The notes beneath the pieces were generated by a model. It was not told the DNA's origin and did not search any database. It saw only the letters and a program-made list of their open reading frames with translations. A DNA stretch of 64,000 nucleotides from Escherichia coli (GTDB taxonomy: Bacteria > Pseudomonadota > Gammaproteobacteria > Enterobacterales > Enterobacteriaceae), in the NCBI RefSeq assembly GCF_046105845.1, contig NZ_CP151004.1. The stretch is one strand, 5' to 3'. Made by a program: the position numbers and the translations under genes. Every line of letters starts with the position of its first letter. Positions within the stretch are counted from its first letter, which is position 1. Of the stretch, positions 2,054 to 62,386 are shown piece after piece.

Positions 2054-2355
2054 GAATAGTTTCCTGAGATGATTATATTACTTTCTAAGTTATAGCAAAA
2101 AGCGCCGCTTCGTGTTGTGGCAAAAAAAGTGTTGGTGAAAATAAATTTTTTAGCCCCTTTTCAGACGACATAGTCAATGCCGAAAAAGGGGCTAAGTCAA
2201 TCATCAGTAGTTAAATTTCAGTAAGTTAAGCGGCTAAAAAACTTCGACTACTGTGATTAATTTCACATCCCTTCGATAAAAAATATGCTTACCGAAAAGA
2301 AGAACAGTAAACCATCTCAGCGTGGGGAATTTTCACGCGCTTTGTTCTTACCGGA

Positions 2356-24158: not shown

Positions 24159-24392
24159 AGCAGCAGGCGCTACGCGCTGATAAAGTTTGCCGATAAAGGT
24201 TTGGTAGTCGCGCAATATATCCGTAACCGTCGTCTCGATTTTTGTGCAGATGCGATTCGCCATGCCGCAGATGATGAAAAACTGGCAGGCATTGGCTTTC
24301 ATTGGGGATTTTCCGACCAGAGTCATTTTTCAACGGTATTTAAGCAACGCTTTGGGATGACGCCAGGCGAGTATCGACGTAAATTCCGCTAA
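24159..24392 (+). pseudogene. feaR: 3'-terminal remnant of feaR (AraC-family C-terminal HTH region), 5' part deleted
   Basis: Plus frame ...YALIKFADKGLVVAQYIRNRRLDFCADAIRHAADDEKLAGIGFHWGFSDQSHFSTVFKQRFGMTPGEYRRKFR* is a typical AraC/XylS second HTH; in-frame stop at 24156-24158; convergent with ydbL as feaR is in K-12. Confidence 0.5.
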
Positions 24393-24428
24393 CTAATTCG
24401 CGTTGCATGTACAGCAACGCGAATTAGT
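24391..24428. terminator. Perfect 16-bp inverted repeat (aactaattcgcgttgc-atgtac-gcaacgcgaattagtt) between feaR remnant and ydbL
   Basis: Seen directly; lies at the convergent 3' ends; no strong T-run, so could be a bidirectional terminator or a protein-binding palindrome. Confidence 0.5.
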
Positions 24429-24563
24429 TAAAACAGATATTTGACTATGCATTTTTCAGGGCGAAAGGCAATTTGACAGGAATTTTTGAATATTCACCTT
24501 GTTTCCGGAAAATAGAATAATCGCCTTCTCCTGTAGCGTTATCCCGATATTGCGGTTTTGCTA

Positions 24564-62343: not shown

Positions 62344-62348
62344 GTTAA

Positions 62349-62380
62349 TATGCCTGATGGTGTTGCACCATCAGGCATAT
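62349..62380. terminator. Bidirectional hairpin between convergent tpx and tyrR (atgcctgatggtg-N4-caccatcaggcat)
   Basis: 13-bp perfect inverted repeat. Confidence 0.65.
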
Positions 62381-62386
62381 TCGCGC

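Follow-up and report, generated by a model that had tools for sequence, protein, structure and literature searches.

A conserved stem-loop without a U-tract between tehB and ydcL of Escherichia coli

What does a perfect inverted repeat do in the gap between tehB and ydcL of Escherichia coli? An earlier note on this DNA had read it either as a tehAB terminator with an unusually large loop or as a protein-binding palindrome. We followed up the repeat in a stretch of 64,000 nucleotides (the window, whose positions are used throughout), the first 4 kb of which is the ydcO/ydcL/tehB/tehA region of E. coli. Like tehA, both genes flanking the repeat lie on the minus strand: tehB (2356-2949) is the upstream gene, whose transcript carries the hairpin, and ydcL (1385-2053), downstream, encodes a DUF3313 lipoprotein. 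The same annotation is found in K-12 MG1655 and strain 7/2, and it bears out the intergenic placement given in the earlier note. The 302-nt spacer between the two genes contains no annotated feature in either of these strains. It was found in 5412 of 5426 complete E. coli genomes at 90-100% identity, and as RNA it is unusually structured as a whole (z -5.5). Text searches of the literature gave nothing specific on tehB-ydcL, on an sRNA or on CRP control there. Our overall conclusion is that the tehB-ydcL hairpin is real, conserved and unannotated, but an ordinary U-less stem-loop of a 3' UTR.

At the other end of ydcL, the short convergent ydcO-ydcL spacer (1351-1384) holds a canonical terminator at 1357-1376 on the minus strand. 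This spacer is also a hotspot for insertion sequences, with IS609 (insQ) in K-12 and IS200C in strain 7/2 (L001 3662-5409 and L002 1696-2154), neither of which is present there in our window.

The inverted repeat and its fold

The perfect arms TTAGCCCCTTTT (2150-2161) and AAAAGGGGCTAA (2184-2195) are complementary at 12 of 12 positions and stand 22 nt apart, so that the coordinates and spacing proposed earlier (2151-2194, arms of 11-12 bp, a gap of about 21 nt) were correct to within one base. Across the 64-kb window, a search for perfect arms of 12 nt or more separated by loops of 3-40 nt returned three such repeats (2150-2195, 24390-24430 and 62347-62381); first-order Markov simulations averaged 0.13 and gave 2 at most. 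The repeat at 24390-24430 has 17-nt arms and a 7-nt loop; that at 62347-62381 has 16-nt arms and a 3-nt loop.

When folded with ViennaRNA as minus-strand (tehB-sense) RNA, the whole stem-loop (2150-2195; NC_000913.3 1502315-1502360, + strand, in K-12) has an outer stem of 13 bp and, past a 3-nt bulge, an inner stem of 6 bp capped by a 5-nt loop. Arm search and fold together place the outer 5' arm UUAGCCCCUUUUU at 2183-2195 and the outer 3' arm GAAAAGGGGCUAA at 2150-2162, both on the minus strand, and the fold assigns the interior (2166-2182, minus strand) to the inner stem CGGCAU/AUGUCG and the loop UGACU. The stem is two-tiered, 46 nt long and closed by A-U pairs. The large loop that had been supposed does not survive this prediction, in which the interior CGGCAU (2182-2177) pairs with AUGUCG (2171-2166) and only the 5-nt apical loop is left. 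Calculating the folding energy, as had been proposed, gave a strong and non-random hairpin of -25.3 kcal/mol (z -4.9), with none of 200 shuffles equally stable. The plus-strand RNA folds more weakly (-19.3 kcal/mol, z -2.9), and the hairpin is retained within the minimum free energy fold of the entire 302-nt spacer. It starts 160 nt past the tehB stop codon on the same strand, after a highly structured stretch of 3' UTR (2196-2355, minus strand) that includes an insert peculiar to Escherichia. The distance from its 3' end to the ydcL ATG is 97 nt, and the ydcL -10 element follows the hairpin after about 55 nt.

A stable sense-strand stem-loop downstream of a gene, with a predicted apical loop inside the 3-8 nt range once the inner stem forms, is what an intrinsic terminator requires up to the base of its stem. 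Beyond the stem, no U-tract (about five or more U in 8 nt, beginning 0-2 nt past the stem) is present: the first 8 nt of the post-stem tract AAAAUUUAUUUUC (2149-2137, minus strand) contain 3 U, in agreement with the earlier description of an A-then-T-rich tract lacking a clean T-run. The tail score in the style of d'Aubenton-Carafa is 0.29, compared with 2-5 for canonical sites in other genera. Neither a terminator scan nor our re-implementation of its rule (at least 5 pairs, at least 3 of them G-C, a loop of 3-8 nt, and at least 5 T in 8 nt starting 0-2 nt past the stem) called the E. coli hairpin. The post-stem tract instead aligns with the AATT(T)GTGC found upstream of ydcL in other genera, and the T-rich run downstream aligns with their conserved ydcL-upstream AATTTGTGC and not with a terminator tail. 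A terminator on the plus strand was also considered and rejected, given that no U-tract follows the hairpin in that direction and that the fold there is the weaker one. The supplementary data of two Term-seq papers list neither tehB nor ydcL.

The tehB-ydcL hairpin is not a canonical intrinsic terminator. Of the earlier terminator reading, one part stands, namely a structure on the tehAB-transcript side, more stable in the sense orientation and in the slot that terminators occupy in other genera; the part that failed is the U-tract, and the scan was silent. Since it lacks the U run that a true terminator needs, the hairpin is probably an ordinary 3'-end stabiliser or a weak stop signal.

The slot upstream of ydcL in Escherichia and other genera

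We compared 80 ydcL loci, one per species. tehB lies upstream of ydcL in Escherichia, Citrobacter, Salmonella, Kluyvera, Trabulsiella and others, while other genes take its place in Enterobacter, Leclercia and most Klebsiella/Raoultella; in E. asburiae, for example, the upstream gene is a 532-aa ORF. At nearly all of the loci compared, about 85-110 nt separate the ydcL ATG from the end of a hairpin, which stands just ahead of a conserved ydcL upstream region of the form AATT(T)GTGC ... TTTTTGYCACAAC ... TTTGCTATAAC. An automated table of best hairpins was noisy because stems ran into U-tracts, and it was replaced by the rule-based scan. By this rule, 30 of 55 species outside Escherichia, Citrobacter and Salmonella carry a hairpin-plus-U terminator in the interval 60-200 nt before the ydcL ATG; its end is usually 100-108 nt from the ATG, regardless of the upstream gene. 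The rule was matched in only one of 26 sequences from Escherichia, Citrobacter and Salmonella, and that match is a minor sub-hairpin; 25 of the 26 nevertheless have a strong hairpin in the slot (-12 to -32 kcal/mol). The hairpin of C. sedlakii is a different one; it overlaps the tehB stop codon and has a U-rich run after it, but fails the terminator rule. With its end 97 nt from the ATG, the E. coli hairpin therefore occupies the terminator slot.

This shared position, together with a strong stem on the sense strand after the last gene of the operon, is what speaks for a working, non-canonical intrinsic terminator, in which the stable hairpin, a weak rA:dT hybrid over the A run and the nearby UUUAUUUU would release RNA polymerase without any factor. 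We regard this as possible, if on the improbable side, given the poor tail just past the stem (3 U in 8 nt), the A-U pairs that close it, the silence of the scan and the alignment of the T-rich run with conserved ydcL upstream sequence.

RNAalifold predicted a stem from 18 sequences of Citrobacter and Salmonella, with double changes in eight of nine pairs, and in a 15-pair version both sides had changed in ten pairs. Hairpin cells were paired in 83.6% of cases, compared with 31-49% when partners were slid, and the covariation score was reached by none of 500 shuffles. The Citrobacter/Salmonella hairpin thus shows clear covariation and is under structural selection. Across all 26 sequences, the sense fold was more stable than the antisense fold in 20, by a mean difference of -3.7 kcal/mol (Wilcoxon p = 3e-4, uncorrected for phylogeny), and G-U cells outnumbered A-C cells by 26 to 14. 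The strand bias and the G-U excess both argue for an RNA structure on the tehB-sense transcript rather than a DNA site. The protein-binding palindrome suggested earlier is disfavoured on the same grounds: arms in the sister genera differ in sequence with their pairing kept by compensatory changes, which together with the G-U excess points to RNA structure and not to a sequence-specific DNA site, and we consider such a palindrome unlikely.

A covariance model of the Citrobacter/Salmonella hairpin found no match at 2150-2195 or at any Escherichia locus (E<=10). It scored 48 bits against a Citrobacter sequence from its own training alignment, as expected by construction. Because the model misses the Escherichia hairpin, we treat the two hairpins as positional equivalents and not as demonstrated homologues. 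In Citrobacter and Salmonella (L008-L027), where the hairpin lies 25-60 nt past the tehB stop codon, a U run (U4-U8) always sits in the loop or just past the 5' arm, and an A-rich run always follows the 3' arm. For the 5' arm of the C. freundii group there is another potential partner, a CUGAAC that overlaps the tehB stop codon, and a stem formed with it would have the U run directly after it; on a speculative view, this alternative pairing would act as a translation-sensitive alternative terminator.

Within E. coli, the hairpin was found at 95% identity or more in 5406 of 5426 complete genomes. A 75-nt hairpin query hit a median of one place per genome and at most two across these 5406 genomes; the hairpin is single-copy, and therefore not a member of the REP family. 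A repeated or mobile element of any kind (REP, BIME, MITE) was rejected, as both the hairpin and a neighbouring 153-nt block are single-copy. In a comparison of five Escherichia lineages, 69% of arm positions were invariant, compared with 39-57% in the remaining 3' UTR. Across seven Escherichia sequences, 91.6% of hairpin cells are paired, and the GCCCC/UUUU core of the outer stem and the UGAC/GUC interior pairs are invariant in all seven. The inner stem varies, with a 4-bp UGAC/GUCA stem in other species in place of CGGCAU/AUGUCG. Covariation in these seven sequences was not significant (one double change, which shuffles equal), so that for E. coli we infer, rather than demonstrate, selection on the pairing.

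Two other readings of this region were tried and rejected. A 39-aa ORF running through the hairpin (2204-2085) has ACG in place of its ATG in one Escherichia locus (L005) and ATA in another (L007), and its frame is changed in L003 by a one-base length change in the 3' arm. An RNA switch, in which 2228-2244 would pair with 2143-2159 (the 3' arm plus the A run), has a non-complementary partner in L004 and L005; that partner also lies inside the insert that is missing from L003. Separately, rare E. coli strains carry tandem duplications inside the hairpin (window 2163-2190), of 21 nt in strain 200164 (L083) and 36 nt in isolate AHB3 (L084). In L085, an O157-like strain, the 5' arm carries a T>G substitution and the A run is longer by one A.

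Such duplications, the non-significant covariation within Escherichia and the 95-100% identity of the whole spacer among E. coli are what might be expected of a decayed terminator without function, whose ancestral U-tract was lost and whose palindrome lingers in E. coli because little time has elapsed. We think this fairly unlikely, in that a U-less hairpin has been maintained in three genera, with abundant compensatory change in Citrobacter and Salmonella, and in that among Escherichia species the arms are better conserved than the 3' UTR around them.

The Escherichia-only insert and the ydcL promoter region

The tehB-ydcL spacer is about 300 nt long in Escherichia, compared with 138-175 nt in most other genera in which tehB is adjacent. 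The additional 125-140 nt (about 2225-2350) sit between the tehB stop codon and the hairpin, are single-copy and are predicted to form two or three further stem-loops. This insert is missing from Citrobacter, Salmonella and most other tehB-adjacent genera, and also from Escherichia sp. MOD1-EC7003 (L003), which keeps the hairpin despite missing the insert.

Inside the insert lies a perfect CRP-type palindrome, TGTGATTAATTTCACA (2252-2267, with no strand assigned; K-12 NC_000913.3 1502244-1502259). It is the sole match in the 64 kb, where 0.08 would be expected, and it is present in every insert-bearing Escherichia locus and in no other locus compared. Its columns are 88% invariant, compared with 39-57% in the flanks; the half-sites are invariant, and only the spacer between them varies. 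This conservation spans E. coli, E. albertii and three further Escherichia lineages. Conservation of the half-sites could just as well reflect a small RNA hairpin. No conserved promoter with class I or class II spacing relative to the site was seen on either strand. The minus-strand -10 candidates at such distances are weak and not conserved, and a plus-strand candidate, TTCACA-16-TATGCT, puts the centre of the site near -36.5, which misses class II spacing by about five bases.

The latter promoter-like sequence (2262-2289, plus strand, antisense to tehB) has its -35 overlapping a CRP-type half-site, and its -10 is not conserved in E. albertii. About 30 nt beyond it, at 2320-2348 on the plus strand, is a terminator-like hairpin, GCGTGGGGAATTTTCACGC followed by GCTTTGTTCT. 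From their arrangement, the two together could yield an antisense RNA of about 50 nt.

Closer to ydcL, the upstream and promoter region (2084-2145, minus strand) is conserved across genera and 89% invariant. It includes a tandem 17-nt direct repeat, TTTATTTTCACCAACAC (2145-2129) and TTTTTTTGCCACAACAC (2128-2112), and a -10 element of the sigmaS/sigma70 type, GCTATAACT (2096-2088, minus strand), that is conserved across genera. The tandem repeats may be an activator site or an UP-like element. This upstream region coincides with a peak that SELEX with the RpoS holoenzyme reportedly placed in the tehB>ydcL spacer (PMC5493296). As ydcL has been reported to be down in a rob mutant (PMC7537768), we compared the conserved ydcL-upstream motifs by eye with the marbox consensus, and saw no convincing match in E. 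coli. A promoter built from the ATTGACT heptamers or from the interior TATGTC/TATATT was also rejected, as their spacings of 19-23 nt do not fit.

The ribose proteins RbsB and RbsK are known CRP targets. Proteomics of a ptsG-deleted strain found the YdcL protein raised together with RbsB and RbsK (PMC9356451), which points, as a hint only, to control by cAMP-CRP. This result, the perfect and conserved CRP-type site 64 nt upstream of the hairpin, the unusual structure of the whole spacer and the missing U-tract, which would permit read-through, could all be accommodated if the hairpin belonged to a transcript continuing into ydcL, arising either by tehAB-ydcL read-through or from a putative CRP-dependent start in the insert, on which it would serve in processing or stability, as an intercistronic or 5'-UTR element, or would form the end of a short RNA. 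We consider this unlikely. The promoter search described above gave no Escherichia-conserved -10/-35 pair at class I or class II spacing on either strand, Escherichia sp. MOD1-EC7003 keeps the hairpin without the insert or the CRP site, and in Citrobacter and Salmonella the hairpin lies only 25-40 nt past the tehB stop codon, where a promoter would not fit. Nor does the element match an Rfam family (Rfam 15 gave noise-level matches only, of 10-20 bits against gathering scores of 36-70). A bolder version, in which the U-less hairpin would be a regulatory RNA element that sets tehAB read-through into ydcL, acting in Escherichia jointly with the CRP-site insert (for instance, as the 5'-proximal stem-loop of a cAMP-CRP-dependent ydcL transcript or short RNA), is a long shot. 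Whatever its role, the more intriguing question left by this locus is the conserved CRP-type site of the Escherichia-only insert.

Finally, a DNA palindrome for a dimeric regulator (of ydcL, for example) or a cruciform-forming site, to which the perfect 12-bp arms some 70-110 bp upstream of the predicted ydcL start and the two copies of ATTGACT (2201-2195 and 2178-2172, invariant in Escherichia) might lend themselves, is very improbable, with an arm separation of 22 bp that is atypical for a regulator site, a predicted inner stem irrelevant to duplex DNA, arm sequences that change outside Escherichia while their pairing stays, and the G-U excess and sense-strand bias that indicate RNA.

Proposed role and known systems

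The reading that we favour, and to which we give about an even chance of being right, is that tehAB transcripts have their 3' end marked and shielded by the hairpin, which also damps read-through into the ydcL promoter without being an efficient factor-independent terminator. On this proposal, the repeat would encode an RNA stem-loop in the 3' UTR of the tehAB mRNA (minus strand of the window). The stem-loop would define and protect the tehAB 3' end as a barrier against 3'->5' exonucleases, after Rho-dependent or inefficient termination further downstream, and would lower but not abolish read-through into the ydcL promoter. We infer the end-protecting and insulating mechanism, and any part for Rho in it, from the placement and form of the hairpin.

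Support for this type of arrangement comes from the E. coli transcript 3' ends mapped by Dar and Sorek (2018; PMC6061677), in which Rho-dependent ends lie just past stable stem-loops without U-rich tails or upstream A-tracts, with a mild enrichment of C over G downstream. These stem-loops block PNPase and RNase II, and the rut sites were placed just downstream of them (PMC6061677). The tehB-ydcL hairpin is likewise stable, has no U-rich tail and is not preceded by an A-tract, its upstream sequence being CUGAUGAUUGAC. Such a stem-loop at the end of an operon matches the class of Dar and Sorek, and for this reason we favour the protective reading. The 60 nt downstream of the E. coli hairpin contain 14 C and 7 G, a bias that does not discriminate, because it is equal or stronger in the genera with canonical terminators (15.3 C and 8.2 G); its probable source is the ydcL promoter region and not a rut site. 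The short distance to ydcL weighs against a protective reading that involves Rho, since the 97 nt between the hairpin and the start codon leave little untranslated RNA on which Rho could act.

If the protective reading is correct, this would be one more E. coli gene boundary that is marked by a stable U-less hairpin and not by a textbook terminator, a class that sequence-based terminator finders miss. The slot upstream of ydcL holds canonical terminators in many genera, and in the group of Escherichia, Citrobacter and Salmonella it holds a U-less hairpin that compensatory changes have preserved. The locus thus offers a convenient natural test case for whether such hairpins stabilise mRNA, assist Rho or insulate a downstream promoter.

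Compared with known systems, the hairpin shares with canonical intrinsic terminators a stable, G+C-containing sense-strand stem-loop after the last gene of an operon, and its slot is that of the hairpin-plus-U terminators of Enterobacter, Leclercia, Trabulsiella, Yokenella, Klebsiella and others. It differs from them in having no U-tract by the stem (AAAAUUUA...) and in its two-tiered, 46-nt stem with A-U closing pairs. With the stem-loops of Dar and Sorek (PMC6061677) it has in common its terminator-like energy, U-poor tail, lack of an upstream A-tract and excess of C over G downstream, although this last bias is not specific to the U-less lineages. A third comparison is with REP325 of yjdMN, which lies between tandem genes and has been described as both a partial Rho-dependent terminator and a stabiliser of the upstream mRNA (preprint 10.64898/2026.03.23.713779). 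Although the tehB-ydcL element is single-copy and not part of a repeated REP family, it too is an extragenic palindrome without a U-tract between co-directional genes, and the role that we propose for it is similarly dual, in that it would protect the transcript upstream and attenuate transcription into the gene downstream.
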